From a virus (taxonomy: Duplodnaviria > Caudoviricetes), in the IMG/VR virus record IMGVR_UViG_3300033175_000001, positions 1 to 64,000 of that record: a DNA stretch of 64,000 nucleotides. One strand, 5' to 3'. Shown here piece after piece: positions 6,244 through 64,000 of this stretch. A program made the translations under genes and the position numbers. The notes beneath the pieces were generated by a model. The model made no database searches, had not been told where the DNA came from, and saw only the letters and a list, made by a program, of their open reading frames with translations. The stretch's first letter is position 1, and each line of letters begins with the position of its first letter.

Positions 6244-6405
6244 TCATACCTCCCTATCTAACCCCGTATCCACATTATACGTTTTACGCTCTTTAAATTC
6301 TTCCTGCTTACCCTTATTCCACTGCTGTACCGGCCTGAAATATCCAACTACCCTGGAATAGACCTCCACCGGCACTTTCCGTTCAGGCTTCTTATCTTCC
6401 TCCAT
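6244..6405 (-). CDS. Stand-alone 53-aa protein matching the NrdD (class III RNR) C-terminal glycyl-radical segment
   Basis: Manual translation MEEDKKPERKVPVEVYSRVVGYFRPVQQWNKGKQEEFKERKTYNVDTGLDREV; GGAG Shine-Dalgarno; exactly fills the gap between neighbours. Confidence 0.85.
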   Translation of the reverse strand: MEEDKKPERKVPVEVYSRVVGYFRPVQQWNKGKQEEFKERKTYNVDTGLDREV

Positions 6406-13229: not shown

Positions 13230-13258
13230 ACAATATTTTATAATCTATGCTAAATCAA
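13230..13258 (-). promoter_or_regulatory. Possible sigma70 promoter TTGATT-N17-TATTGT for the lipoprotein gene
   Basis: Hexamers at 13258-13253 and 13235-13230; only a consensus-like match. Confidence 0.3.
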
Positions 13259-13905
13259 GCATTAAAGTATTCCCGAGTTAATTTGACTGTAGCAGGCTCT
13301 ACCATTCCTACCCATGACTCATCACCCGCTGCCAGCTTGCTGCGAATATCTGTTCCTGATATTCCTTTTATTTCGTCAGTAACTACCACTTCTTCCACAT
13401 TATATCCTACTCCTCGTCCATAATAAATTCCTTCTATATCCGGCATTATGACTATCGTTCCTCTTATATTCTCCGAAGTCATCCACGCCTTTATTAACTC
13501 TGCCCTATCAACGGCAGGGATATCATCGAACTTGGTATCTCTTACTAAAATAAGAGCTGGCAGATTCTTGCTCTCCAGCACCTTCTTAACTATTGCAGTA
13601 TGCCCCTGATGCAAAGGGCACCACCTTCCTATAAAAGCAATGTGCGGTTCCTGGGCATCCACATTTGAAAAGAACTTCAGGTCGTACTTACGAATGTCAA
13701 ATATCCGAGCAAACCAATAATGGTAATTATAGTATAAAAACGTATTCAGAATATTCCATACTATCGAAGTTCCAATAGCCCACTTCCACTGCCCAGTCAG
13801 GAAATAAAAGAATATCGACTGAATAATAACGACATGCAACCTATAAACTATTCCACTGCCAATCAGCAGCATTGATTTAATAGGCATCAATTTTAGCTTT
13901 CTCAT
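13255..13905 (-). CDS. DUF2061-like membrane domain fused to a HIGH-motif (cytidylyltransferase-like) nucleotidyltransferase; putative minimal sulfate adenylyltransferase
   Basis: N-terminal YRLHVVIIQ...LYYNYHYWF; FIGRWCPLHQGH; YYGRGVGY; ISGTDIR; adjacent to APS kinase. Confidence 0.6.
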   Translation of the reverse strand: MRKLKLMPIKSMLLIGSGIVYRLHVVIIQSIFFYFLTGQWKWAIGTSIVWNILNTFLYYNYHYWFARIFDIRKYDLKFFSNVDAQEPHIAFIGRWCPLHQGHTAIVKKVLESKNLPALILVRDTKFDDIPAVDRAELIKAWMTSENIRGTIVIMPDIEGIYYGRGVGYNVEEVVVTDEIKGISGTDIRSKLAAGDESWVGMVEPATVKLTREYFNA

Positions 13906-14390
13906 CTGTTTATCCTCTCTGTTATAAAATCTACAAGCTGAAGAACACTTTCTTCAACTGATTGCTTTTCAGTATCAATTACCAGATCGCACAGAACTGG
14001 CTCTTCATACGGGCTTGAAATTCCTGTAAACTCAGGAATCTCCCCTTTAATTGCTTTTGCGTACATCCCCTTTGTATCCCGGTCTATACACTTATCTAAA
14101 GAAGACTTTACCCAAACGATGGAACAGTTTGGAATCTCCTCTTTCGCTCTCCTTCGTTCATCCTCATACGGAGAAATGAATGAAGTCACCACATGATGAT
14201 TTAACTTTGAAAGCAACTTACATAGCTCCCTCAGCCTCCTCATATTCTCACGGCGATCCTCTTCAGAGAACCCTAAATCCGAACACAACCCTTTTCTCAA
14301 GACATCTCCATCTATATTGACAAACCCTTCAAGCTCATCTGCCAAAGTAGATTTCCCGGCTCCAGACAAACCTGTCATCCATATAACCAT
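13902..14390 (-). CDS. cysC: Adenylyl-sulfate (APS) kinase
   Basis: WMTGLSGAGKST, DGDVLRKGL, LGFSEEDRRENMRR, SFISPY, RDTKGMY, FTGISSPYEEP; start reassigned to ATG 14390. Confidence 0.9.
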   Translation of the reverse strand: MVIWMTGLSGAGKSTLADELEGFVNIDGDVLRKGLCSDLGFSEEDRRENMRRLRELCKLLSKLNHHVVTSFISPYEDERRRAKEEIPNCSIVWVKSSLDKCIDRDTKGMYAKAIKGEIPEFTGISSPYEEPVLCDLVIDTEKQSVEESVLQLVDFITERINR

Positions 14391-14394
14391 TATC

Positions 14395-15108
14395 TCACCT
14401 CTGTAGCGGCTTCTTAAAGTACTTAAACCCTCTATAAATATCTGAACTAATATCAAAATCAACCTTTACCGATTTACGCGACCGCAAGCAAGGCAAAGCA
14501 TCTCCATCCAATCCGCTACCCCAAAATTCATGGGCCTTTGAAATAAACCTGTAGCATTTATTCTGAAATGGTTGAGAGCACCAGTACAAACACCCTGCAT
14601 TTTTAAATAAAATAATTCGAGACTTATCAGTTAGCCTATTTAAAAAATCAATATCTTCGGTTCTACGCGGGTGTAATGTAACGAAATCATATAATTCCAA
14701 TGCATTATCAATGCTTTCAATATCATCTATTCCTTTTATAACACTTGCTATCAACTTAACTCCGGGAAAGTCCTCTTTCAGCCTCATCGCCAATAAATCA
14801 TTTGTCACAGTAACTTTATTGCCTCGAAAAATAAATTCTGCTATTACCGACTTAAATTTTTTGTACCACTCCGGTTCAAAATAATCACTGGTTAGCGTAA
14901 CAGTAAACGCCACGCCAATACTCGCCAGCAAATCCACTTGTTTGAATGAATATACCTGAGAGGCAGAAAATATTCTTCCTCCATACAAAGGAGTGAACTC
15001 TTCGTGAAATCCAAATACACTCGTAACAACACCAAAATGATCGTCTGCCAATTCGTGAATTTTTGCCAGATCTTTCATTGGTCTCGAAGTTACGGAATAC
15101 TCCTTCAT
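14395..15108 (-). CDS. U32-peptidase-like Fe-S TIM-barrel protein
   Basis: LYGGR, VTNDLLA...FPGVKLIAS, NAGCLYWC...KC...PC (4 Cys); start at ATGA overlap 15108. Confidence 0.55.
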   Translation of the reverse strand: MKEYSVTSRPMKDLAKIHELADDHFGVVTSVFGFHEEFTPLYGGRIFSASQVYSFKQVDLLASIGVAFTVTLTSDYFEPEWYKKFKSVIAEFIFRGNKVTVTNDLLAMRLKEDFPGVKLIASVIKGIDDIESIDNALELYDFVTLHPRRTEDIDFLNRLTDKSRIILFKNAGCLYWCSQPFQNKCYRFISKAHEFWGSGLDGDALPCLRSRKSVKVDFDISSDIYRGFKYFKKPLQR

Positions 15109-15893
15109 CTCAAGTTCAGGTAACATGCGGGAACCTCCATTACGCTTGGATGGTAGAAGCCATGCCCTGAAACTCCGTCCACCTCAGTAAAGCACTCACC
15201 ATGGTCAGAACAGATGAATACGTTTGCAGGCCGAGGTATTACGTCTATAACCTCTAAAATATGGCTATCCACATACTCAAAAGCATCCACCTGACTCTTG
15301 ATATAATAACTCGGGTAATTACCCTTCTCATCAGGTTCTGCTTTTAATCGATATGGTCTATGAGTGCTGGCTATATTCAAAAATAAAAATACAAGAGATT
15401 TCATATCAAGCGTCTTTAATAACTGTATCTGTCTTTCAAAGCTATTTGGAATAACCGGAGAAAACTCATCCGCATAGTAGAATTCTTTAAAATACATACT
15501 CCATAAATCTCTCGATGAATAAAATGAGCTATTAAACCAATCAACTCCGCCAACCCCAATAGTACGATATCCTTGTGCCGCAAAACTCCCAGGCACGCTG
15601 GTATCTGTTTCCTGTAATGAGAACTCAGCATTACGAGTATTGTTCCCGTACCTAAATAAACCATGCGAATGCTTAAATGGAGGATCAGCTTTAAACGAAG
15701 ATGGAAATTTACCGCCAGTAAACATTGATACATGAGCGGGCAACGTATAAGTTCCATGAGCACAGACTTTCTCCCAGCCATTTCCTATCCGCTGGTGTTC
15801 TGCAAATAACTTCTCAAAATTGGGTGAATTAGCAATTTGGGTAACATCGTACCGCAAAGAATCGATAGTTATTAAAGCAAAATTTATCACCAC
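15105..15893 (-). CDS. Alkaline-phosphatase-superfamily (sulfatase/NPP-like, STM4013-like) enzyme with Thr at the nucleophile position
   Basis: ITIDSLRYD, GTYTLPAHVSMFTG, IGVGGVDWF, STHRPY, CSDHGE, GHG. Confidence 0.75.
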   Translation of the reverse strand: MVINFALITIDSLRYDVTQIANSPNFEKLFAEHQRIGNGWEKVCAHGTYTLPAHVSMFTGGKFPSSFKADPPFKHSHGLFRYGNNTRNAEFSLQETDTSVPGSFAAQGYRTIGVGGVDWFNSSFYSSRDLWSMYFKEFYYADEFSPVIPNSFERQIQLLKTLDMKSLVFLFLNIASTHRPYRLKAEPDEKGNYPSYYIKSQVDAFEYVDSHILEVIDVIPRPANVFICSDHGECFTEVDGVSGHGFYHPSVMEVPACYLNLR

Positions 15894-16420
15894 TTAACCT
15901 CCGCAAGCTCCTGCTCAGTCGATGCACTTATTATACTCTCTTCAAGAGAATGCTTCTTTTGCAACAAGCCTACCTGGTAATCTTCCATCTCCACTAAAAG
16001 CGCCTGTAATTTTTCCAGGGTCACTATAGCTTTTACATACTTACCTTTATAGCTTATGCTTTCTTCAGGATTACGCTGAGCCCAAGCTATTAAATTCTTA
16101 ACATTCTGAATATCATTCTTATCCCCTCCCCGACATTCAATAGTAATACCCTCTACTGGATTTGTAAAAGATATTCCATCATCTACTTCAACGGTAACCA
16201 CCGAAGAAACAAATGCTCCGTCTTTAAACTCATTCAAAAACCCATACTCAACTTCATTAAGTTTTAATTCGCGTAACACTTCTAAATCGATTCCGGCACA
16301 ATCATCTAAAACCTTTATTAACTTGAAGTTATTTAGTATAAACGACGGAATATTTGAACTATCTTCTATGAAGATATTCGAATATTCGCCTGTTTGTTTG
16401 TTCAAAGCGTGGACATTCAT
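15887..16420 (-). CDS. DUF4376-like tail fibre assembly protein
   Basis: C-terminal DIQNV...LEKLQAL...LLQKKHSLEESIISASTEQELAEVKW pattern; GAGG Shine-Dalgarno. Confidence 0.6.
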   Translation of the reverse strand: MNVHALNKQTGEYSNIFIEDSSNIPSFILNNFKLIKVLDDCAGIDLEVLRELKLNEVEYGFLNEFKDGAFVSSVVTVEVDDGISFTNPVEGITIECRGGDKNDIQNVKNLIAWAQRNPEESISYKGKYVKAIVTLEKLQALLVEMEDYQVGLLQKKHSLEESIISASTEQELAEVKW

Positions 16421-17015
16421 CTTCTACCTCCAAATCACCTGAAAAATTGTTTACGTTCCCCCATACTGGAGCATCACTACACCCGCACCTACAAATATTT
16501 CCATTCGGCTTAACGAATATATGCCAATCGGCGCAGTCTAAATCTCTGCCCTCTTCGGCTGCCCTTCCTGCGTTTAACATATATGGAAATGTAAACGTCC
16601 TACCTGAAAATAGCTCAAGCACTTCAGCATCAATATCTTCATGAAACCTATCTCTTGCAATGAATACAGCCAGTTTAGGCGAAGATACAGCTGCCAAAGA
16701 TTGCATCGCCGCAACTGCTTTGCCGTTAGTCTGAACAATAACCTTCTCTAAAGAAGAAGCTATTGCTATAGTTACAAAATCAATGAAACTGGGATGAATC
16801 GAAGGTTCCCCGCCTGAAATTATTACTTCTGTAAAACCTTCCTGTAAAAATAACTGAATTACTGATAAAAAGGTTTCCTGCGTCATAAATACTGAACTTT
16901 GAGATGCTGCAGGAGCAGATAAATTGCAGCACTCACACTGCATATTGCAGTCTTCGGTTAATTGAACGTAGACTTGCTTACTTCTCAGAACCCTACGTTG
17001 ACTTACTTCTCTCAT
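16359..17015 (-). CDS. Radical SAM protein with Twitch/SPASM-like tail
   Basis: CNMQCECC, SGGEP, QTNG, C...FVKPNGNICRCGC. Confidence 0.85.
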   Translation of the reverse strand: MREVSQRRVLRSKQVYVQLTEDCNMQCECCNLSAPAASQSSVFMTQETFLSVIQLFLQEGFTEVIISGGEPSIHPSFIDFVTIAIASSLEKVIVQTNGKAVAAMQSLAAVSSPKLAVFIARDRFHEDIDAEVLELFSGRTFTFPYMLNAGRAAEEGRDLDCADWHIFVKPNGNICRCGCSDAPVWGNVNNFSGDLEVEDECPRFEQTNRRIFEYLHRR

Positions 17016-17024
17016 TTCGCCCTC

Positions 17025-17669
17025 CTAATACTGAACTCTATCTGGACGGAGTTTAACGCCAGACTCTATCTTCGCTCTCAACGATGGTGACTTGCAACCT
17101 GTAAATACTAAAAGCCGTGGGTCTACCGTAAAAATATTACCTATTGAGGGTGCGTCTAAGCAACCGCAGCCCCGCACATCACCGTCAGGTTTAATATAAA
17201 TATTAGGTGAAATGCAAGCGTACGCATTGCCGAAATCTTTTCCCCTGCCAGTCCTCCCTACAAAATGAGAAGTTAATAAATGCCCCTCATAAGCCTTATA
17301 TACCTCGTCGCTTACGCACTCATGGTACCTATCATAACTTACCATTGCCCGCAACTTTCCTTCTGAAGAGTCCGCCAACTTCTTTAATTTTAAAGCTACT
17401 TCGGTTATTTTACCGTTTATCGCTATAAGAATATACTTAAAATCCCTCTGTAATATTAACTCCGTCCATTCCAGAAAATTCTCATGCATTGTAGGCTCCC
17501 CGCCAGTTAAAACTACCCTGTCTGGATTTATACTTTCGAGGACATCCAAACATTTTACATAAGTTTTAAAATCCATAGGACGTTCGTACCCTACCTCCCC
17601 TTCGACTGTTGAATTCTGCGAACAAAAGGCACAGTGCATATTACATTGTGTTAATAATTGAATGTGCAT
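17025..17669 (-). CDS. Radical SAM protein with Twitch/SPASM-like tail, paralog of the neighbour
   Basis: CNMHCAFC, TGGEP, C...YIKPDGDVRGCGC. Confidence 0.85.
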   Translation of the reverse strand: MHIQLLTQCNMHCAFCSQNSTVEGEVGYERPMDFKTYVKCLDVLESINPDRVVLTGGEPTMHENFLEWTELILQRDFKYILIAINGKITEVALKLKKLADSSEGKLRAMVSYDRYHECVSDEVYKAYEGHLLTSHFVGRTGRGKDFGNAYACISPNIYIKPDGDVRGCGCLDAPSIGNIFTVDPRLLVFTGCKSPSLRAKIESGVKLRPDRVQY

Positions 17670-17870
17670 CTAAAATACCTTCGCCCTTCCAGCTTTTAAA
17701 TCCTCCATTATCTGCCTTGCCTCCTTCTCCGTATTACCGTCTGGTTCAAATGCCTCTTCGGAAATAATGAACTGATCCAGAATAAACTGAGGAATATTAT
17801 TCCTGTCTTCTACAATAATGGCATTCCTTCTTCCTGTAGTTTTATGGGTTACATAAATAGTGTCCATCAA
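17670..17870 (-). CDS. 66-aa peptide paralogous to the N-terminus of the DUF4376 protein
   Basis: KTTGRRNAIIVEDRNNIPQFILDQF versus KQTGEYSNIFIEDSSNIPSFILNNF. Confidence 0.7.
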   Translation of the reverse strand: MMDTIYVTHKTTGRRNAIIVEDRNNIPQFILDQFIISEEAFEPDGNTEKEARQIMEDLKAGRAKVF

Positions 17871-53533: not shown

Positions 53534-55420
53534 TTACTTCCCCGGAGGGCTAAAAGTCCTCTTCTTCGCTATAGGCTGAGTCTGCTTTGTAGGAACTCCC
53601 TGAACCAATCCGGCCTCACCCTGCTCTGAAGCCTTATATGCCCGATACTCTTCCATCTCAAGATCAACCGGCTTCTCTGCAACCCTCTCAGACTCCTCAT
53701 CAGCCGGCAATTCTTCCGGTAACTCCTCTCCCATTAAAACGCCAGAACCTTCTTCTGCAGCAAAACCTTCTCCGACCATTTCCCTCATGTTATCAGCAGT
53801 AAACTCTCCCATGGACTCCACTTCAAACATTTTATCTTCTTCAATCTCTTTGAATTTAGCGTCTATATCCTTAATACCTCGACGACGCATTGCTCCTTTT
53901 TTCGACTCAATGCCCATCTCCATCTCCATCTGAAGTTCCTGAAGTTCCTGCATTGAATCCCTCGGAAGATATTCAGCCCACTTTATTTCAACTTTATAGT
54001 AAGGATTAAATGAAAGCTCCTGATACAATTTATAGACCATATCATCTTCCTGCGCCATTAAATCATCTTCCTGAGTATCAGTACTCTCCGCAACCTCCAC
54101 CTCTTGAGTAATCCTTATTTCTTCGAGCTGATCCCGCACATTAACATACCTGTCAACTCTATCCTGAAGATTAAGATTGAGATTAGTGTCAAGCATCTTC
54201 AAAGCATATTCGTATATCTGAACAAACCCGGCCTCATAACTTAAACGTTTCCTCCTGGTTAATCCTATCAATGGTAAATACTGTACCTGCAATGCTATAC
54301 CAGTAGCATTTGAAATATTCTGAAAAAGCCCACTCGATGCTTCCGGTATACCACTCGTCAGATAAGCAAAATCCTGAAGCTGTTCCATCAGATCCTTTAC
54401 AGCCGGAAAATTCTGCTGCCCGCCAAGCTGATCCACCTTTGCGTCCTTTGGAAACCCACTCCAAATCTTATTCGGTCCCCTGCGAAGATTCCCTATTTTT
54501 GCTCCGAAAATCAATGTTATAGGACTACCATGATATTTCACAGAATCAAGATATTGCGAAGCCGCCTCATTAAGATTCAGGTTAAGATCAACAATGTCTA
54601 CCAGATCACTTCTCCCATAAGTTTCCAGAGGAACTACCTGATTCCTAAAATGCACGACCGGAATAAAGCCCAAATCATTATCCGCCTCTTCTATAAGCTC
54701 CTGTTCAATATTATCAGCCGATATAGACTCTACCGTTTTGAACTTAAAAAGCTGCTTAAATAGTTTCTCCGGCTTCCACGAAGAATCTTCATTCTCATCA
54801 TCTTTCAGATACTCAACAAAAAGCTCTCGCTTTTCCTCCGTCCATACCTCTTTAAAAAGAACGTCCCTGACCGTACCATCCGGCCATGTGTACTCTCCTT
54901 CCCACACTATAACTGCTTGCTGAAGAACAGTCCTGTTCCTTTCAGACTTTCTGTACCGCACAAAGGTCTTTTCTGAATCCAATAACTGAAACCGCGGACT
55001 CTGTATATCCTCATCCCAGATAACTTTCACAAAAGAATCCCCACATACACTTGCGTTCGTAACTACTTCAAGAGCAAATAATTCAATACCTGATTTCTTG
55101 TTGATATAAGCTATCACCGGAGCCATCAGCTTTGAATACGCATCTGGAGCATAGACAGTAAAAGGTTTGCCGACAAGAAAATCAGCACTCCTATCTACAA
55201 AAGCCTTTGCCAGATTTATCTTTACATCCTTTGGATTCTTCATCCTCGGATCAATATGAATCATATCATTCCGATAAGACTCCCAAAATTTTCTATAAAG
55301 AGTTATTCTATAAAACTCCCGGATAAAATCTGGGTCATCTTTGAACAACTCCAAATCAACATCCATCTTATTCAAATAAAGACTTACCTTATCATATAAA
55401 TCCAAATAAAAATTTCCCAT
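53534..55420 (-). CDS. Portal protein (SPP1 gp6-like)
   Basis: NLAKAFVDRSADFLVGKP, GDSFVKV, PVVHFRN..YGRSDL, SGIP, ATGIAL. Confidence 0.88.
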   Translation of the reverse strand: MGNFYLDLYDKVSLYLNKMDVDLELFKDDPDFIREFYRITLYRKFWESYRNDMIHIDPRMKNPKDVKINLAKAFVDRSADFLVGKPFTVYAPDAYSKLMAPVIAYINKKSGIELFALEVVTNASVCGDSFVKVIWDEDIQSPRFQLLDSEKTFVRYRKSERNRTVLQQAVIVWEGEYTWPDGTVRDVLFKEVWTEEKRELFVEYLKDDENEDSSWKPEKLFKQLFKFKTVESISADNIEQELIEEADNDLGFIPVVHFRNQVVPLETYGRSDLVDIVDLNLNLNEAASQYLDSVKYHGSPITLIFGAKIGNLRRGPNKIWSGFPKDAKVDQLGGQQNFPAVKDLMEQLQDFAYLTSGIPEASSGLFQNISNATGIALQVQYLPLIGLTRRKRLSYEAGFVQIYEYALKMLDTNLNLNLQDRVDRYVNVRDQLEEIRITQEVEVAESTDTQEDDLMAQEDDMVYKLYQELSFNPYYKVEIKWAEYLPRDSMQELQELQMEMEMGIESKKGAMRRRGIKDIDAKFKEIEEDKMFEVESMGEFTADNMREMVGEGFAAEEGSGVLMGEELPEELPADEESERVAEKPVDLEMEEYRAYKASEQGEAGLVQGVPTKQTQPIAKKRTFSPPGK

Positions 55421-55431
55421 GGCCGCCTCCG

Positions 55432-55926
55432 TTAAACAAAATACACTCCGTAAATGAATCCCTTATGAATACATTTACTTGCAAAATCCATAATCTCACT
55501 ATGCTCCCAAAAAGAAACACGTTCCGTAAACACGTTCCCGAACTGCGGCCCCTGAGATATAGGTTTCAAAGGTAAACACATAAGCAAACGTCCCTTCAAA
55601 GAATTTATTATCCGCATTGCTTCGTCTTTCTTCATTTTATCAAATACATTAAATCCTAAATACAAATCATAAGGCTCACACCAAAAATCAAATTTTCTTG
55701 CGTCACCCAACATTATATTACGATAAACCGGAAGACCAAAAATGGCTCTCTTATAAGCCTTCTCTATGCTACGCTCATCTATATCCACCGCATCAATAAC
55801 AACACTGGGCAAAAGCTCTTTTATGAACTCGCCCAGTGCTCCCCAACCACAACCTATATCCAAGATAATCCGGGGCTGATCACCCTTTAAAAAATCAGCA
55901 GTAGACTTTAAATACTTCCTATCCAT
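55432..55926 (-). CDS. Class I SAM-dependent methyltransferase
   Basis: ILDIGCGWG, DAVDID, GDAR. Confidence 0.8.
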   Translation of the reverse strand: MDRKYLKSTADFLKGDQPRIILDIGCGWGALGEFIKELLPSVVIDAVDIDERSIEKAYKRAIFGLPVYRNIMLGDARKFDFWCEPYDLYLGFNVFDKMKKDEAMRIINSLKGRLLMCLPLKPISQGPQFGNVFTERVSFWEHSEIMDFASKCIHKGFIYGVYFV

Positions 55927-57600: not shown

Positions 57601-58290
57601 TCATAAATTATTTATAGTACAGTGCGCCCCGTATTTAGACCGCCTATAAATTGTTGCTCTTGAACCAAACAGAGAATTTATCCTCTCTTTGTAATCCTGA
57701 TATGAAGGCATTTCATCAGATAAAAAATGCAATTCAAAAGTAGAGAAACGAGATTTCTTTAATATATCTACTCCCTCATCTGAGAAAAATAAACACTCCT
57801 CTCCTCCCTCGGCATCACATTTTAAAACAGCATTTCCGCCTTCAAATATATTTATGTATTTAGCGTGAAAATCTTTTATTCCCATTAAAGAAGCCAGTAC
57901 ATTCGATTCCTTACGAGCAAACGACTCTTTACCAACTGTAGAATATAACGAAGACCCGTTACTATGAACATTGAACGTACCAGGCTCAAAACCAATTCCA
58001 ATATTATATGATGAAACACCAGTTAAAAATTTTGTATTCTCCAAAAACATCTGATGAGTTGATTTTACAGGTTCAAAAGCAAACACCTTTGCGCCTGGAT
58101 ATAGCTTCTTAAATAACCTTGTAAATACCCCTATATTTGCTCCTACATCAAAACAAACTGTATTATCGAACTCTCTGCCTTTAATCCTGTAAGAATCGTC
58201 ATCAAATAATTCTTCGATGGTCAACTTCAAATCCATTTTATTATCAGTAATAAATTTACCCATTGAATTATGCTCATAAATATCTATCAC
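57601..58290 (-). CDS. FkbM-family methyltransferase
   Basis: FDVGANIG, FAFEP, LKCDAEGGE. Confidence 0.85.
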   Translation of the reverse strand: MIDIYEHNSMGKFITDNKMDLKLTIEELFDDDSYRIKGREFDNTVCFDVGANIGVFTRLFKKLYPGAKVFAFEPVKSTHQMFLENTKFLTGVSSYNIGIGFEPGTFNVHSNGSSLYSTVGKESFARKESNVLASLMGIKDFHAKYINIFEGGNAVLKCDAEGGEECLFFSDEGVDILKKSRFSTFELHFLSDEMPSYQDYKERINSLFGSRATIYRRSKYGAHCTINNL

Positions 58291-58294
58291 GCTA

Positions 58295-59020
58295 TCACCT
58301 CAATGCATATCTAAATAATTGACCGAGAACACCCGGATCATCCAAAAGTTGCTCTTTTGAAAATCCTGCATACTTGGTGTCCCTTAGATAGCTATTGAAT
58401 ATAGCAGCAGCGTAAGTTTCAGAATTTACCCACGGAGAAATATCTCCTTTCCCTGAAAAAATAACGCTCATATCCGCTCCCGTAAAAGGCTGCATCTGCT
58501 TATAACTAAAATGTCGATACTTCCTGCCTTTTAACGCTTTTCGAGAAGCATGAAAGTTAAAGGCAAACTTATGCATCTGCTTACCTTCCCTTTCACGATT
58601 CAACGCTTCAGCTATATTCTTTAGCCAACTTGTAATTATGTGTCCTCTGGCACGACTACCAAAAATACCGTTAGCTATCTTACCCTGCTCCCAACCATAG
58701 CCAAAAAATTCAAAATCATCGAACACGTCGAATAAAGGCTGCACACTACGGAAAACAACAGTATCTATATCCATCCATATACCGCCGTTGTAAAAAAGAA
58801 GTACAACTCGAATAAAATCACTCACCGTCGCTATATCCGGCAAACTCCATACATCGTCCCGAATTTCCACAGGAATAAACTGATTCAAATTACTTCTATT
58901 TACGATATGCACTGGATGGCCTGCGGAATGCTTCTTAATTGTATCAAGGCAAAGATCAATATACTCAGGAGTACCGTAATCTTTTAAAGGTTCCCAAAAT
59001 AGCCATATTGCGTCATTCAT
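58295..59020 (-). CDS. DXD glycosyltransferase (GT32/capsular polysaccharide synthesis-like)
   Basis: IWLFW..P.YIDLC..TI, SDFIRV.LL...GGIWMDID. Confidence 0.85.
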   Translation of the reverse strand: MNDAIWLFWEPLKDYGTPEYIDLCLDTIKKHSAGHPVHIVNRSNLNQFIPVEIRDDVWSLPDIATVSDFIRVVLLFYNGGIWMDIDTVVFRSVQPLFDVFDDFEFFGYGWEQGKIANGIFGSRARGHIITSWLKNIAEALNREREGKQMHKFAFNFHASRKALKGRKYRHFSYKQMQPFTGADMSVIFSGKGDISPWVNSETYAAAIFNSYLRDTKYAGFSKEQLLDDPGVLGQLFRYALR

Positions 59021-59644
59021 TTAGTCTGCCCCCATTGAAAACGTCCGGCTATTTCGAGGTCTGCCAAAACAATTCTTCGCAGTACCGAGCGTTGAATCCA
59101 TATCAATATTATGATCAACCAAATTCGGAACACATATTGCATAATCCTGCTTCACTTCTTTCAGATACTTACCTAAAAGAGAATCGTGCCCCTCCTTCTC
59201 GTCATAATAAGTATCCTCATAGTCGCTCGCCCATGAAAGCCACTTACGGGCAAAATCATACCTAAATGCTGCCGCCTGATCCCACAGGTAGGTAGCACCT
59301 TTTTCGATCTGCCACCTTCTATCATCTTCAGGAAAATCCATAGGGCGGAAATACTGAAACAATTTGAAACCCAATAACTCCGCCTCTTCTATACGCTTTA
59401 AAGCCTTTGAATAAAAATCATTACAAAGTATTATATCGTCCTGAAACATTACGATCCATCTCGCGCCGGATTCAAAACCCTGCCTGAGAGCTTTAACATG
59501 GCTCCATACAGTTCCCTTCATATAAGGATCGTAAAATTCATTTAGACCAGGAACAGCTTCAAAAACATTCCTGGCATCAAAGCCCTGCTCTTTCCTTTTC
59601 TGGCAAGTAACGACCACCCAGTAAACATCATGTTCCGATATCAT
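59021..59644 (-). CDS. GT-A fold glycosyltransferase (GT25-like)
   Basis: SHVKAL, IVMFQDDI, PNLVDH. Confidence 0.6.
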   Translation of the reverse strand: MISEHDVYWVVVTCQKRKEQGFDARNVFEAVPGLNEFYDPYMKGTVWSHVKALRQGFESGARWIVMFQDDIILCNDFYSKALKRIEEAELLGFKLFQYFRPMDFPEDDRRWQIEKGATYLWDQAAAFRYDFARKWLSWASDYEDTYYDEKEGHDSLLGKYLKEVKQDYAICVPNLVDHNIDMDSTLGTAKNCFGRPRNSRTFSMGAD

Positions 59645-60879
59645 ACTGCAGCCTCCGTCATCTTTGCCCTGTTCTCAGGAGTATACCACCAATAAGTCCC
59701 GGGAAAAGCTACAAGTATAGGCTTCTCGGCCTTAAAAACACCACCAGTAGGTTTAAAAGTACTGGGTTCAACATAATCCAGCCCCAGGTAAGAATTAAAC
59801 GGATCGCCGTCCCATGCTTTATGAGTTAAATCTTTCCAAGACCCAAGTAAACCACAAGGCATACAACTGGCAACGTCCGGAAAAGGAGTAGTCGAATGCT
59901 TTGCATGCCTTCTGAGAACATTCGCCCTGACACGCTTCGCCCTATCAGCTACCCATAAAGGTGCCTCCTCTATACACGTCCTCTGAAAACATTCTTCCCA
60001 GGTCTCATTTAAACGCCGCTGCGGAGTACAAGTCTGAAGACCAAATTTAGCTGCAGTTCTTATCCCCGGAATCCTCTCAGCAACACGGTCAAACCAATGA
60101 GGCCATGCTCGCATTGCGATAGATAATTGCTGGATAGCAGCACCATTAAGAGTAACAGGTGCAATACGCATGCCATGAGCAGGCACACCCATTTTAAACA
60201 TGACATCATACGCTTCATTATAATCCCAACCGTTATCTCGAATTGACTTCCACACATCCCCATCACGCCAATCATATATCGGCCAGGTATTACGAACTTC
60301 TCTTGTGCGCTTATCATCCGAATTATATTTTGATGTAATAAAGTCTCCCTGCATCGATGCAAGACTCATTGCCCGTTTTGGAGACTCCTGAACCCTGATA
60401 CCGATAACATCAAACATATCTACGCCATCCCGTGTGGGTAAATCCGGTAATTGATCCAAGGTACAAAGGTCATATAAATCTTTCGTCCGAGTTATCTGTT
60501 CTGCGTAAGGAGGCGGTTTCCTCACCCACTTATCCTCCGGGATATCTGGGTCAAATGCCCACCAATAAGGCTGTTCCCTATTGAACGGATTGGTGTTCGG
60601 ATTATTCATATAACACCAGTGGAAATCAACTTCGCTGGTTCTGTTTGCAACCCGTTCAGCGTATTCATAAGTCCCTGGGTACATAATCTCTTCATCATTC
60701 ATTATTGTAGTAACCGGAAGCCTACCCATTTTCTTTGCAACCATGACAGCAAGCTCCAGACACACCGCTGAATCCTTGCCTCCAGAAAATGATACAACTA
60801 CATCTCCCTGTTCAAAACAATACTGAAGTCTTGTCAGAGCCCTCTCGAAAACATTCTGCCCTAAATATAATCTTGCCAT
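59641..60879 (-). CDS. PAPS-reductase-like PP-loop protein (YbdN/IbrA/DUF3440-like)
   Basis: SFSGGKDS, DEEIMY, IGIRVQESPKR, WPIYDW..DVW, YN..YD. Confidence 0.85.
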   Translation of the reverse strand: MARLYLGQNVFERALTRLQYCFEQGDVVVSFSGGKDSAVCLELAVMVAKKMGRLPVTTIMNDEEIMYPGTYEYAERVANRTSEVDFHWCYMNNPNTNPFNREQPYWWAFDPDIPEDKWVRKPPPYAEQITRTKDLYDLCTLDQLPDLPTRDGVDMFDVIGIRVQESPKRAMSLASMQGDFITSKYNSDDKRTREVRNTWPIYDWRDGDVWKSIRDNGWDYNEAYDVMFKMGVPAHGMRIAPVTLNGAAIQQLSIAMRAWPHWFDRVAERIPGIRTAAKFGLQTCTPQRRLNETWEECFQRTCIEEAPLWVADRAKRVRANVLRRHAKHSTTPFPDVASCMPCGLLGSWKDLTHKAWDGDPFNSYLGLDYVEPSTFKPTGGVFKAEKPILVAFPGTYWWYTPENRAKMTEAAV

Positions 60880-60881
60880 AT

Positions 60882-61577
60882 CTACCTCAGCTTTGTTATA
60901 GAATAACCTTTCTTATCAAACATCTTTGAAATGTTAGCTATCTTTCTTTTATTAAATTCAAGCCCAAAACATTGGACGCCGCTGTCAATAAACGGAGGCC
61001 AAAAAGACGCCTCTCCTACAAACATATCCAACAGCTTCTTTGGACGGATATTTCGATTTAAAAAATTCGGAATATATAATCCCTTCTCACTATGCTTGCC
61101 ATTAGGATCATCATCCCATTCAGGGGCCTCTACCCCATCTACAAAAGTTCCTACCCACAAGCAGTATTCAATACCGCTTCCATAAGTAGGAAAAAACATA
61201 TTGAACTGTTTCGCCCCATATTTATCGAGCCTGGGCTTTAATTGCTCCATACCTTTTATACCCATCTCAATAGCAACATACTTGGAAGAATAATTCTTGC
61301 AGGCGAAAGCAATACCCTCTAAAAGATTCTCAAACCCATTCTTCGGAAGCTTATCCATACCTACCCATTCCCGGAACTGATTCGCTATCCTTGTATCCCA
61401 TGGCGGGTCAGTATAAATAAGATCTGCTCGTTCTTCCCCCATTAAAACTTCAAGCGCCTTTGGACTAAACGGAGCACAAATATACCTATGCTTCAGTTCT
61501 CCTGCTTCGTACATCTCACCCGGCTGAATAGGAAACTTCTCCCAGGCATCTCCGTACATTTGATCTGCTTCCATCAC
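60882..61577 (-). CDS. Amino-methyltransferase-like protein (DPPW) with degenerate SAM motif
   Basis: HRYIC...LMGEERADLIYTDPPW; LLDMFVGEAS; GLEF. Confidence 0.65.
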   Translation of the reverse strand: MMEADQMYGDAWEKFPIQPGEMYEAGELKHRYICAPFSPKALEVLMGEERADLIYTDPPWDTRIANQFREWVGMDKLPKNGFENLLEGIAFACKNYSSKYVAIEMGIKGMEQLKPRLDKYGAKQFNMFFPTYGSGIEYCLWVGTFVDGVEAPEWDDDPNGKHSEKGLYIPNFLNRNIRPKKLLDMFVGEASFWPPFIDSGVQCFGLEFNKRKIANISKMFDKKGYSITKLR

Positions 61578-62104
61578 TTAACCTCCGAAACTGGAAAAAT
61601 ATAATCTACAAAACAAATAGCTACCAGCACCGTACCGTGCTGCTTCTTTGGAATAATAGTTTCGACTATAAGCTCTTCATCTTTAAGAAAGAACTCATCT
61701 GAATAGCCGTTAAAATAAATCTCCTGCAGAGCTTCCCTCAATTCAAGGGACGCCTCTTCTTTTAACTTTGGACCGTTATATTCACAAACGATCCCGCCAT
61801 ACTTCTCTTCAGTCTCTTTATTATAAAGCCAACCATAAATAATGCCGGCTGTACCTACTTCCCCTTTACCACAAGTACACACACCCATAATTGCTTCCAT
61901 AACCGAACCATGTGTCAACTTTTTAGGTTTGGGAATTTCCTTAGCCTCACCCGGAAGTATTGAGGAATACTGCATAATATTACACATCTCAATATCAGCA
62001 TCCTTTAAAGCCATGTGATAAGACCCGGCGTGTATAGTTATATCACTCTCCCCTTTACCGGTCGTTACAAAAAAATTTCGGGGAACTCTTTGCCCTACTA
62101 TCAT
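61574..62104 (-). CDS. pdaD: Pyruvoyl-dependent arginine decarboxylase
   Basis: FFVTTGKGE, SYHMAL.DADI..CN..YS-SILP self-cleavage site. Confidence 0.85.
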   Translation of the reverse strand: MIVGQRVPRNFFVTTGKGESDITIHAGSYHMALKDADIEMCNIMQYSSILPGEAKEIPKPKKLTHGSVMEAIMGVCTCGKGEVGTAGIIYGWLYNKETEEKYGGIVCEYNGPKLKEEASLELREALQEIYFNGYSDEFFLKDEELIVETIIPKKQHGTVLVAICFVDYIFPVSEVK

Positions 62105-62826
62105 TAACTGACCCTCCTCGCTAAAAATACTATTATACCATCATAACCCCTTGAATAATCGCAATCCATGGAGAAAGACTTAACCATTTTAAAATCACTA
62201 TCGAGAAAACCAATAATTTCCATCATATCAACTGGAAACGCTGAGTACTTAACTTTTCCAACTTTATAAAACTCGGCGTTCCTCAAAGCTGCCATTACTA
62301 TGTACTTATCCGCTGCGGACTTAATATTGGAAAAAAGCTGAGAATAATCTACATAATTATCCGTTATACTTTCGATACAAAAACACGACGATACCAAATC
62401 CGCCTTTGTAGGAATTCCGCCCAATACATTTAGCTGCTTAAATTCAATATCTAAATCAAGCATCCGCCACTCGATAAATTCTTTTGTTGTACCCTCGATA
62501 TCAGCTACATAATTTAAAAAATCATTCCAATCAAATCGTGAAGGTGAACACTTGAACCACTTAGCCACCTCCATCAGATTACTCTTACTAAAATCTGAAA
62601 ATAACACCCTTCCGGCCTTATTACTTGCACTCATGAGTTGATAAATAGTAGGGCCTCCGCCAACTTCAAAAATACTTAAGCCATCATCAATATCTTTATA
62701 AATCTCGTGGAATGATTCTAAAAGAAATTTATTCTCCTCGTCGCAACTCGAATAATATTCATTCAAATATCTTCTTGAAGAAAAATCCGTAAAATCAACA
62801 CGCTTATCCTCTAAAACAATCATCAC
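62104..62826 (-). CDS. NNMT/PNMT/TEMT-family small-molecule N-methyltransferase
   Basis: F..R.YL..YY, GGGPTIYQLMSA, DF...N..E..KW.....FDW, FC.E, FYKVG..KY. Confidence 0.85.
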   Translation of the reverse strand: MMIVLEDKRVDFTDFSSRRYLNEYYSSCDEENKFLLESFHEIYKDIDDGLSIFEVGGGPTIYQLMSASNKAGRVLFSDFSKSNLMEVAKWFKCSPSRFDWNDFLNYVADIEGTTKEFIEWRMLDLDIEFKQLNVLGGIPTKADLVSSCFCIESITDNYVDYSQLFSNIKSAADKYIVMAALRNAEFYKVGKVKYSAFPVDMMEIIGFLDSDFKMVKSFSMDCDYSRGYDGIIVFLARRVS

Positions 62827-64000
62827 TCCGTCCTATGAAAAGTGGCTTTATTCACCACAAGTTTTCCTTCTCTCGCTGCACGTCGAACATTATCAAAACC
62901 ACGAATTTCAGAAATATCCATCCTGTCAATAATATCCTCTACATAATTTATAGAATCATCATTTGGATCAGCATTCAATGAAAAATAATTGGGAGATTCA
63001 ATCGCAGAACCCATATTAACGGCTTCTTCAGCAGCATTAAGAGCGAGAAAGAAACTTTGTACGTAGTCATCCTTCGCTCCCTTATAAGTACCATGACGAA
63101 TAATCATTTTATCATTTTTCCATACTTTCTCCGCATCAAGCAACTGCACCATAAATTTATTATACTTGCGCGTCTTTTTCGCTGAAGCATGGGAAGGAAT
63201 GCGAATATTTTCATGGTTCAAATTCTTATAAAATAACTGCGCCAACTTATGCTGATTCTGCAAAGAGAAATAAACAGGCTGAACATGCACATCCCTATAT
63301 GCTAACCTTCTTGAAACCATCTCATGTATCGGGTCGCCGACACCGGTTGAGTCTATGCTTAAAACCTGCAAGGTATCGTACCGCTTACACACCCTCACAA
63401 TATCATCTACCTGAGATTCCCAGTTATCTCCTTCCCATTCAAACCATGCGGATACCTGCTTATAATACATATCAGCGTCCACAAAAACAGTTGCAGCCTC
63501 CTCGCTTTCCTCATCGCCCATAAGTTCTATATACCTTCTCGGCGAAGTATCCCGACGAACAAGTTTTATGATAGTAAGAACAGTACTGTCATACTTTTTA
63601 CCAAGGTCAAGGCCGGCAACATACATAAACCTATTATCGGGAGAACTTTCCAACTTCAAAGAAGTTGCCTTCATCTTCCGTTCAAAGTCAGCCGACGTAA
63701 TTGCCATACCTTTCTGAAGTAGCCACTCCAGCTTATACGACATCCTAAAATAATCGGAATCCTCACCGTACCTTGATTTTTCTTTCTGTATCCAACGTGC
63801 ATACCGTTCATTATATTTACTGACGACGGTATAATCAAACTCAAAATGATTTTTAACCTTATTCTTGGATAACTGAGATATTCGTTTATTTCGAGTAATT
63901 GCTTCGAGGAACTCACACTGCCTCATGTGGGGAGTGCCAAGTTTTATGATAGTTGCAGAAGTAGCTGCCCCCATCGGGTGGATACTTTTAAGTACCTTTT
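62823..64000 (-). CDS. Terminase large subunit, 5'-truncated by the window edge
   Basis: Frame is open to the edge (KVLKSIHPMGAA..IIKLGTP); nuclease motif AGLDLGKKYDST; KDDYV. Confidence 0.85.
   Translation of the reverse strand, partial: KVLKSIHPMGAATSATIIKLGTPHMRQCEFLEAITRNKRISQLSKNKVKNHFEFDYTVVSKYNERYARWIQKEKSRYGEDSDYFRMSYKLEWLLQKGMAITSADFERKMKATSLKLESSPDNRFMYVAGLDLGKKYDSTVLTIIKLVRRDTSPRRYIELMGDEESEEAATVFVDADMYYKQVSAWFEWEGDNWESQVDDIVRVCKRYDTLQVLSIDSTGVGDPIHEMVSRRLAYRDVHVQPVYFSLQNQHKLAQLFYKNLNHENIRIPSHASAKKTRKYNKFMVQLLDAEKVWKNDKMIIRHGTYKGAKDDYVQSFFLALNAAEEAVNMGSAIESPNYFSLNADPNDDSINYVEDIIDRMDISEIRGFDNVRRAAREGKLVVNKATFHRTE

Follow-up and report, generated by a model that had tools for sequence, protein, structure and literature searches.

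A putative decarboxylase-methyltransferase amine-supply arm in the IbrA/ParB cassette of a tailed phage

Pyruvoyl-dependent arginine decarboxylation has been demonstrated for phages in the viral polyamine survey of Li et al. 2023, with enzymes of the AdoMetDC (S-adenosylmethionine decarboxylase) fold; the PF01862 fold appears there only as a non-homologous archaeal comparator, and an amine methyltransferase is not mentioned (PMC9992855). That second fold is represented by PdaD of Methanocaldococcus jannaschii (PDB 1N2M, 2QQD) and by chlamydial AaxB. Amine N-methyltransferases of the PF01234 family are known mainly from the animal enzymes NNMT, PNMT and INMT (human and mouse structures, PDB 3ROD, 2IIP, 1HNN, 2A14), and GntF is predicted to be the N-methyltransferase of guanitoxin biosynthesis, with an arginine-derived precursor as its substrate (PMC10673588). 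The IbrA/IbrB modules of Escherichia coli and phages combine a PP-loop protein (phrog_2302, annotated "PAPS reductase") with a ParB-like protein (phrog_2159), often near packaging genes, as in Streptococcus phage CHPC1148 and Pseudoalteromonas phage XCL1123; no assigned chemistry for IbrA/IbrB was found in the searchable literature. Here we analyse a window comprising bases 1-64000 of the 77,324-bp IMG/VR viral record IMGVR_UViG_3300033175_000001 (about 80 % complete), in which a PF01862 pyruvoyl arginine decarboxylase gene (ADC) adjoins a PF01234 methyltransferase gene (MT) at the edge of a cassette with the same PP-loop and ParB partners as the IbrA/IbrB modules. Unlike this phage, the cultured IbrA/IbrB examples carry neither the decarboxylase nor the NNMT-family gene.

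Neither enzyme family is new as a kind, nor is the IbrA/IbrB module. New are the presence in viruses of both an NNMT-family methyltransferase and a decarboxylase of PF01862, their coupling, the existence of decarboxylase-methyltransferase fusions, and the proposed placement of the pair as the donor-supply arm of a swappable cassette. A protein search of 50,697 phage records found neither MT nor ADC encoded in any of them, PHROGs holds no family for either protein, and a pattern scan of IMG/VR recovered PF01862 genes on 6 viral contigs and an NNMT-family methyltransferase in only one other contig. Literature searches brought up no direct precedent on N-methylagmatine, on agmatine together with DNA hypermodification, on IbrA/IbrB, on DUF3440 or on PF01234. 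We propose, and put at roughly 45 %, that ADC and then MT form a two-step amine-supply arm that feeds a mobile cassette of IbrA, ParB, methylase and glycosyltransferase genes.

The decarboxylase matches the PvlArgDC profile PF01862 over its entire length (E 3.6e-28; 98.9 bits, cut-off 22.7; profile positions 1-161 of 161). The intact pyruvoyl site that the original prediction had read in it is present: YSS/ILP aligns to S52-S53, the Ser-Ser site of the M. jannaschii enzyme, and N42 and E108 align with Asn47 and Glu109, the role of Glu109 in that enzyme having been described (PMC2720952). ADC is nevertheless distant from PdaD (E 3.7e-5) and belongs to a separate clade, marked by HAGSYH and shared at about 60 % with DPANN archaea, Bacteroidota and Spirochaetota, whose members are 55-65 % identical to it among more than 1,400 homologues. 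All 44 clade-invariant columns of a 25-member alignment (HAGSYH, CNIMxYSSILP, VCEY, NGY) are kept in ADC, which in this alignment is 55-64 % identical to the cellular members. The position of M. jannaschii Asp35 is occupied by His, which is invariant throughout the clade including its cellular members and is therefore not a viral change; the phage proteins lack the N-terminal extension found in cellular forms. Cellular clade members 61-65 % identical to ADC stand in polyamine contexts: in a Spirochaetota genome the PvlArgDC gene accompanies an arginase-family (agmatinase-family) gene and a DS-family gene, and on another contig it adjoins AdoMetDC. Judging from these residues and neighbourhoods, ADC very probably makes agmatine.

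The methyltransferase, read as 240 residues from a GTG at 62826 or 239 from an ATG at 62823, matches NNMT_PNMT_TEMT with E 2.3e-30 (106.2 bits, cut-off 25; profile positions 13-245 of 261). Its AlphaFold model (pLDDT 95.2) superposes on human NNMT with a TM score of 0.89, and each of the top 50 Foldseek matches of the model is an NNMT (TM 0.86-0.90). With NNMT, PNMT and INMT it shares the fold, an S-adenosylmethionine (SAM) loop of the form GxGPTxYQ (GxGPTIYQ), a Tyr aligned to Y20 of human NNMT and the KW..FDW motif; an acidic residue follows strand 2. The likeness to human NNMT in individual motifs that had been pointed out before is borne out, GGGPTIYQLMSA standing opposite GSGPTIYQLLSA, KW..FDW opposite KW..FDW and FYKVG opposite YYMIG, although overall identity is only about 25 % (E 7.5e-24, HMMER alignment to PDB chains). 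Although MT is only 30-45 % identical among the phage lineages, five of five keep the SAM loop, the Y20-aligned Tyr, the acidic residue that follows strand 2, the FCxES Glu and the YxVG Tyr. The FCxES Glu aligns with Asp167 of NNMT and presumably also with Glu185 of PNMT. At the position of human NNMT Asp197, a residue of the nicotinamide site, MT carries Ala (Ser in the relatives P0007 and P0008), so that it should not be called a nicotinamide methyltransferase (EC 2.1.1.1).

Where does this methyltransferase come from? An exhaustive HMMER search yielded 1,038 relatives, and the nearest are prokaryotic, reaching 38 % identity in Woesearchaeota and E values down to 1e-44 in a species-level genome collection; other near relatives belong to Saccharibacteria, Gemmatimonadota, Opitutales, Leptospirales, Bdellovibrionota, Desulfonema and others. 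The label "eukaryote-like" given in the original prediction therefore suits the family name and not the kinship of the gene, to which prokaryotic proteins are much closer than human NNMT. The link to GntF, drawn in the same place, fares better: MT reaches 63.2 bits with the NCBIfam GntF model NF041360, whose cut-off is 60. This narrow pass comes from two separate stretches, the same model gives the MT of the related phage L048 only 25 bits, and no other gnt genes occur in the phage or among the neighbours of MT. GntF and the SCO2525 family (NF040568) belong to the same Pfam family as MT, but a match of this kind does not make the phage gene an orthologue of GntF.

Four independent lines of evidence tie the two activities to each other: their adjacency in phages, two kinds of fusion, and adjacency in cellular genomes. 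As first described, the stop of MT overlaps the start of ADC (TAATG at 62104); the flanking TerL/MT and ADC/next-gene junctions are GTGATG overlaps, and through these junctions the genes are translationally coupled. MT adjoins ADC in five phage lineages, in the order MT-ADC here and in L007, L011 and L019 and in the order ADC-MT in L021 and L048. Elsewhere the association takes the form of natural fusions. P0010 (734 aa) joins an NNMT-family domain, 35 % identical to MT, to a pyridoxal-phosphate-dependent Orn/Lys/Arg decarboxylase (OKR_DC), and in P0081 (371 aa) and P0150 (264 aa) a pyruvoyl decarboxylase domain of the AdoMet_dc fold is fused to an NNMT-family domain. In addition, an OKR_DC gene lies within 1-2 kb of an NNMT-family gene in 3 of 24 cellular genomes, two spirochaetes and M. 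szulgai. The idea that MT acts on the decarboxylase's amine thus finds backing in three natural fusions, three cellular adjacencies and five phage lineages with both gene orders. Since three non-homologous decarboxylase folds are tied to the family, there is good evidence that it methylates amines fresh from decarboxylation. We lean, on this pattern of association, towards agmatine or an agmatine moiety as the probable substrate of MT, and we infer N-methylagmatine as the product of the pair.

Separate recruitment of MT behind the two gene orders was considered and dropped: an unconstrained tree sets the L021 protein apart, but the approximately unbiased test does not reject one phage clade (p 0.70).

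Three other architectures involving this family were observed. P0146 (579 aa) fuses an NNMT-family domain to a phosphatidylglycerol lysyltransferase C-terminal domain, which hints at methylation of lipid-bound lysine amines. The two spirochaete loci (L027:1134-8568 and L033:573-6744) combine the NNMT-family gene and OKR_DC with a 1,094-aa protein bearing TLC-transporter-like, HEAT and cNMP-binding regions, and that of L033 also holds a fatty-acid-hydroxylase-family gene; it is possible that these loci make, methylate and transport an amine.

Ten genes lie between the large terminase and portal genes: MT, ADC, a DPPW-motif protein, an IbrA-like protein, a GT-A glycosyltransferase, a second glycosyltransferase, an FkbM-family gene, two genes with ParB N-terminal (ParB_N) domains (ParB301 and ParB256, for their lengths) and a small methyltransferase, MT164 (Table 1). 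The gene next to the pair is indeed that of the large terminase, as had been claimed. A phrog_2302 PP-loop protein together with two phrog_2159 ParB_N genes identifies the cassette as IbrA/IbrB-type.

Table 1. Coordinates, in the window, of the enzyme pair, the other cassette genes and the genes that bound them.
Feature	Position	Strand	Basis
Large terminase, C-terminal part; gene extends past the window, 669 aa in total	62823..64000	minus	phrog_2 E 6.8e-20 (full-length, L002)
NNMT/PNMT/TEMT-family SAM-dependent amine N-methyltransferase (MT), predicted	62104..62826	minus	PF01234, AlphaFold2/Foldseek, conserved motifs
Pyruvoyl-dependent arginine decarboxylase (ADC), PvlArgDC fold, 176 aa, predicted	61574..62104	minus	PF01862, active-site motifs, clade conservation
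DPPW N6/N4-DNA-methyltransferase-like protein, methylase half of split ParB-methylase	60882..61577	minus	phrog_498 positions 191-278
IbrA-like PP-loop ATP pyrophosphatase (PAPS-reductase family), SGGKDS	59641..60879	minus	PF01507 E 3.1e-13, phrog_2302 E 3e-55
GT-A glycosyltransferase (GT25-like), 207 aa, conserved cassette member	59021..59644	minus	phrog_854 E 3.6e-9
Second glycosyltransferase (Caps_synth / DXD sugar-binding), variable member	58295..59020	minus	PF05704 E 3.6e-13, PF04488 E 3.3e-7
FkbM-family methyltransferase, variable member	57601..58290	minus	PF05050 E 3.8e-6
ParB/Srx N-terminal-domain protein (IbrB-like), 301 aa	56682..57587	minus	PF02195; phrog_2159 E 1.8e-34; phrog_498 positions 21-170
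ParB/Srx N-terminal-domain protein (IbrB-like), 256 aa	55919..56689	minus	PF02195; phrog_2159 E 1.4e-31; phrog_498 positions 22-182
Small class I SAM methyltransferase, 164 aa (MT164)	55432..55926	minus	Methyltransf_25
Portal protein (SPP1-type), lower cassette boundary, 7 kb downstream	53534..55420	minus	PF05133; phrog_64 E 1.1e-38

Because the DPPW protein and the ParB proteins match separate halves of phrog_498, we read them as the split form of a fused ParB-DNA methyltransferase. The nearest ESM Atlas neighbours of the DPPW protein are viral N6_N4_Mtase clusters, and it is 71-79 % identical in three related phage lineages; ParB301 is 71-74 % identical in L021 and L019, and MT164 61 % in L019. 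An IbrA-like gene was found next to the decarboxylase in L019, L021, L048 and a further viral contig, L054; the C-terminal DUF3440 domain of IbrA is undetected in the window's protein and detected in its L054 homologue. The GT-A enzyme is homologous to a Glyco_transf_25 gene of L048 (E 9e-31), with an invariant QDD and His, and its AlphaFold2 model (pLDDT 78) finds its best folds in COLGALT1 and a bacterial beta-1,4-GalT. Searches of solved structures with the DPPW, IbrA-like and 207-aa GT-A proteins returned nothing usable.

Comparison with related phages indicates that the pair moves with this cassette. Against L021, a conserved frame consisting of the terminase (C-terminal fragment, 100 % identical), the portal (95 %), ParB256 (93 %) and MT164 (92 %) encloses ADC (78 %), the DPPW protein (71 %), ParB301 (71 %), the IbrA-like protein (58 %), MT (32 %) and the GT-A enzyme (32 %). 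With identities of only 32-78 % inside a frame of 92-100 %, these six genes form a single fast-diverging block that is exchanged as a unit, and such a block in a conserved frame is the pattern expected of arms-race genes. Among the related phages as a whole (terminase 63-100 %), MT, ADC, IbrA, GT-A and ParB persist; the second glycosyltransferase and the FkbM gene come and go, the former being absent from L019, L021 and L048 and the latter present in L019 at 32 % identity and not found in L021 and L048. In L048 the ADC-MT pair stays beside IbrA, GT25 and a methyltransferase. The two enzymes evolve at different rates, with ADC 64-81 % identical among the same phages in which MT is 30-45 %.

The place of the DPPW gene in L048, between the pair and IbrA (L048:2855-4401), is taken by a 342-aa radical-SAM protein and a 171-aa protein. 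The best NCBIfam match of the former is a prokaryotic viperin-family model, far under its cut-off.

An independent link between decarboxylase and IbrA is provided by L054, an unrelated 31 kb IMG/VR viral contig, apparently of high GC. Its PvlArgDC homologue is 36 % identical to ADC, retains HAGSYH and YSS/MLP, and overlaps the IbrA gene (PAPS_reduct + DUF3440), after which follow a ParB_N gene, a DPPW homologue, a phrog_854 glycosyltransferase and two more ParB_N genes. The DPPW homologue is full-length (26 % over 211 aa) and shares YTDPPW. The L054 cassette contains no NNMT gene, and no homologue of this phage's terminase or portal was found in the 14.5 kb examined, nor any terminase within 7 kb. 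Thus a decarboxylase accompanies the same core of five parts in an unrelated virus as well. Together with the block-wise exchange described above, this makes it probable that the pair serves the cassette.

How might a decarboxylase, a methyltransferase and an IbrA/ParB module work together? TilS, one of the PP-loop enzymes that ligate amines or ammonia, joins lysine to cytidine, activating the base so that it can receive an amino-acid-derived amine. Archaea use agmatine made by PvlArgDC as the donor when they form agmatidine in tRNA-Ile; TiaS is not a PP-loop enzyme. The likeness of the present locus to TilS and to archaeal agmatidine formation in tRNA-Ile is mechanistic only, and no sequence membership is claimed. 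We propose the following model. The pyruvoyl enzyme ADC would decarboxylate L-arginine to agmatine, arginine being suggested by the context of the clade, and MT, as its associations with decarboxylases suggest, would use SAM to N-methylate the agmatine, either free or once attached. The IbrA-like PP-loop enzyme may adenylate an acceptor to which the amine of (methyl)agmatine would be joined, in the manner of TilS. The split ParB-methylase parts could aim this chemistry at phage DNA, blunting host restriction, and the GT-A enzyme might add a sugar. DNA as the final target is a tentative assignment. The most far-reaching version is a new DNA-hypermodification route in which the phage would make and methylate its own donor and an IbrA-type PP-loop enzyme, serving as amine ligase, would attach it to phage DNA as an N-methylated adduct of agmatine that might also carry a sugar; this version we consider improbable.

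Several observations weigh against the proposed amine-supply arm or its parts. ADC scores below the NCBIfam equivalog cut-offs (TIGR00286, 39.7 against 106.95 bits; NF009064, 37.7 against 207), and so does the whole PvlArgDC clade, including arginine decarboxylases named as such by NCBI. Since these cellular enzymes fail too, the missed cut-offs reflect divergence of the clade; since the whole clade lies below them, it is context and conservation, rather than a characterised near relative, that speak for arginine. All five phage lineages that have the pair share ancestry (terminase 63-100 %), so their synteny does not amount to five independent observations, and L054 is a single contig. IbrA homologues, some of them annotated IbrA/IbrB or lying just before the portal, occur in 198 cultured phage records without a decarboxylase or NNMT gene, from which we conclude that the amine arm is an optional add-on to a general module. 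Against DNA as the target, the enzymes by which the established phage DNA hypermodification pathways begin (5-hydroxymethylpyrimidine-based, 7-deazaguanine and 2-aminoadenine), namely a TS-like hydroxymethylase, DpdA/TGT and PurZ (PF00303, PF01702, PF00709), were not found in the 77 kb record, itself about 80 % complete. The ParB/Srx proteins score on the small-molecule kinase models SerK and SbnI as well, which leaves room for a metabolite or a glycan, instead of DNA, as the acceptor. Finally, on four large IMG/VR viral contigs PvlArgDC occurs without cassette genes within 7 kb, and the decarboxylase can therefore act as a free-standing metabolic gene. These stand-alone genes (L050-L053; contigs of 86, 676, 299 and 105 kb) are 47-58 % identical to the window's ADC; their neighbours are hypothetical, and no informative domains were found near them.

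The four stand-alone genes lend weight to a simpler picture, in which the pair alone fills the cell with N-methylagmatine, a dication poorly removed by host agmatinase, deiminase or acetyltransferase, as a counter-ion for DNA packaging or for use in translation. Many polyamine enzymes are virus-encoded (PMC9992855), the pair directly follows the terminase gene, and both the methyltransferase-decarboxylase fusions and the cellular pairs occur without IbrA genes. This picture is nonetheless unlikely, because every phage lineage with the pair has it abutting IbrA-type genes and exchanged with them as a block, and because in L054 the decarboxylase overlaps the IbrA gene and a terminase was not found within 7 kb. 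The site beside terL is, moreover, where this phage family carries its cargo cassettes and does not speak for a role in packaging. Of the three roles first suggested for the product, that of a modification donor is accordingly the one favoured by context. A packaging polycation is a weak candidate, as the pair travels with the IbrA/ParB/methylase/glycosyltransferase cassette and the L054 decarboxylase joins that cassette where no terminase was found within 7 kb. The third, interference with host pools, would as a sink for SAM be hard to square with a phage whose own genes include several other candidate SAM methyltransferases and two radical-SAM enzymes. In its broader form, this last idea holds that the pair drains host SAM, for which arginine would be a limitless source of acceptor, or arginine itself, and so cripples SAM-dependent defences (BREX, type I/III restriction). 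NNMT itself belongs to the family, and human NNMT acts as a methyl sink. Phage strategies against SAM are cited in PMC12839542; a sink would, however, starve the phage's own SAM-dependent enzymes and would leave the conserved linkage to the IbrA core unexplained, and we hold it to be very improbable.

Two further alternatives concern the substrates of the two enzymes. Agmatine may go to the cassette while MT methylates some other nitrogen, in the attached agmatine moiety, a base or a different small amine. The far faster evolution of MT than of ADC, the absence of MT from L054 where the rest of the core is kept, the several other methyltransferases in the cassette and the lysyltransferase fusion P0146, by which family members can be tied to bound amines, all accord with this possibility. 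We regard it as quite unlikely, since both the three decarboxylase fusions and the tight coupling in translation suggest that the newly made amine is passed directly to the methyltransferase, and the family is known for small-molecule acceptors from the structures of NNMT, PNMT and INMT. Alternatively, the pyruvoyl enzyme might prefer ornithine, lysine or a modified amino acid, giving a different methylated amine. The missed equivalog cut-offs (39.7 against 107 bits) and the His at the Asp35 position could be read in this way, and changes of substrate are on record for phage AdoMetDC homologues (PMC9992855). That His is invariant across the clade, however, cellular members lie in agmatinase/DS and AdoMetDC operons, and the phage proteins have no substitutions at clade-invariant columns, which makes a change of substrate very unlikely.

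What would the amine-supply arm mean for these systems? IbrA/IbrB-type modules are common in phages and prophages, and by naming a candidate substrate the sequence from arginine through agmatine to methylagmatine would turn an opaque module into a testable pathway. Virus-encoded polyamine metabolism is extended by a second, non-homologous pyruvoyl arginine decarboxylase fold and by a predicted amine N-methylation step not described in viruses. More generally, the fusions to decarboxylase folds give a clue to the function of the prokaryotic branch of the NNMT family, about which little is known. Should the DNA-adduct version prove true, IbrA/IbrB would gain a first biochemical function and DNA hypermodification a new class.

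Sludge, anaerobic-digester and wastewater metagenomes contain the phage itself in identical or near-identical form, on contigs of about 86 kb; no cultured phage related at the DNA level came up when the 50,697 phage records were searched with DNA and protein. It carries a tailed-phage gene set (DnaB helicase, primase, major capsid protein, SPP1-type portal, Amidase_2), along with an N6/N4 DNA methylase, two radical-SAM genes, an APS kinase and a sulfatase-family gene. All long open reading frames of the window lie on the minus strand, as does nearly every one of at least 120 aa that is free of overlap with a longer one; GC skew is strongly negative throughout (-0.20 to -0.38 per 2 kb). A search of the window for tRNA genes, which could have pointed to a host, found none. 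Metatranscriptome contigs from one study, of a strain about 6 % divergent, cover DPPW-ADC-MT; as DNA carry-over is possible, they are evidence only of the strain's presence in those samples.

To the right of the window, the same phage has a dGTP_diPhyd_N (PF18909) gene near RadC and RNase H (L003:4722-5072); a 2-aminoadenine genome is not indicated, as the 77 kb record contains no PurZ-type adenylosuccinate synthetase homologue. At about 6244-6405 in the window, a 53-aa product matches only the NRDD family (PF13597), a full-length nrdD not being seen, and may be a stand-alone glycyl-radical "spare part". Behind the tail-fibre genes (13255-17870) lie the two radical-SAM genes (214 and 218 aa), the sulfatase-family gene (262 aa) and the APS kinase (162 aa), a curious occurrence of sulfate activation in a phage that also holds a PAPS-reductase-family gene.

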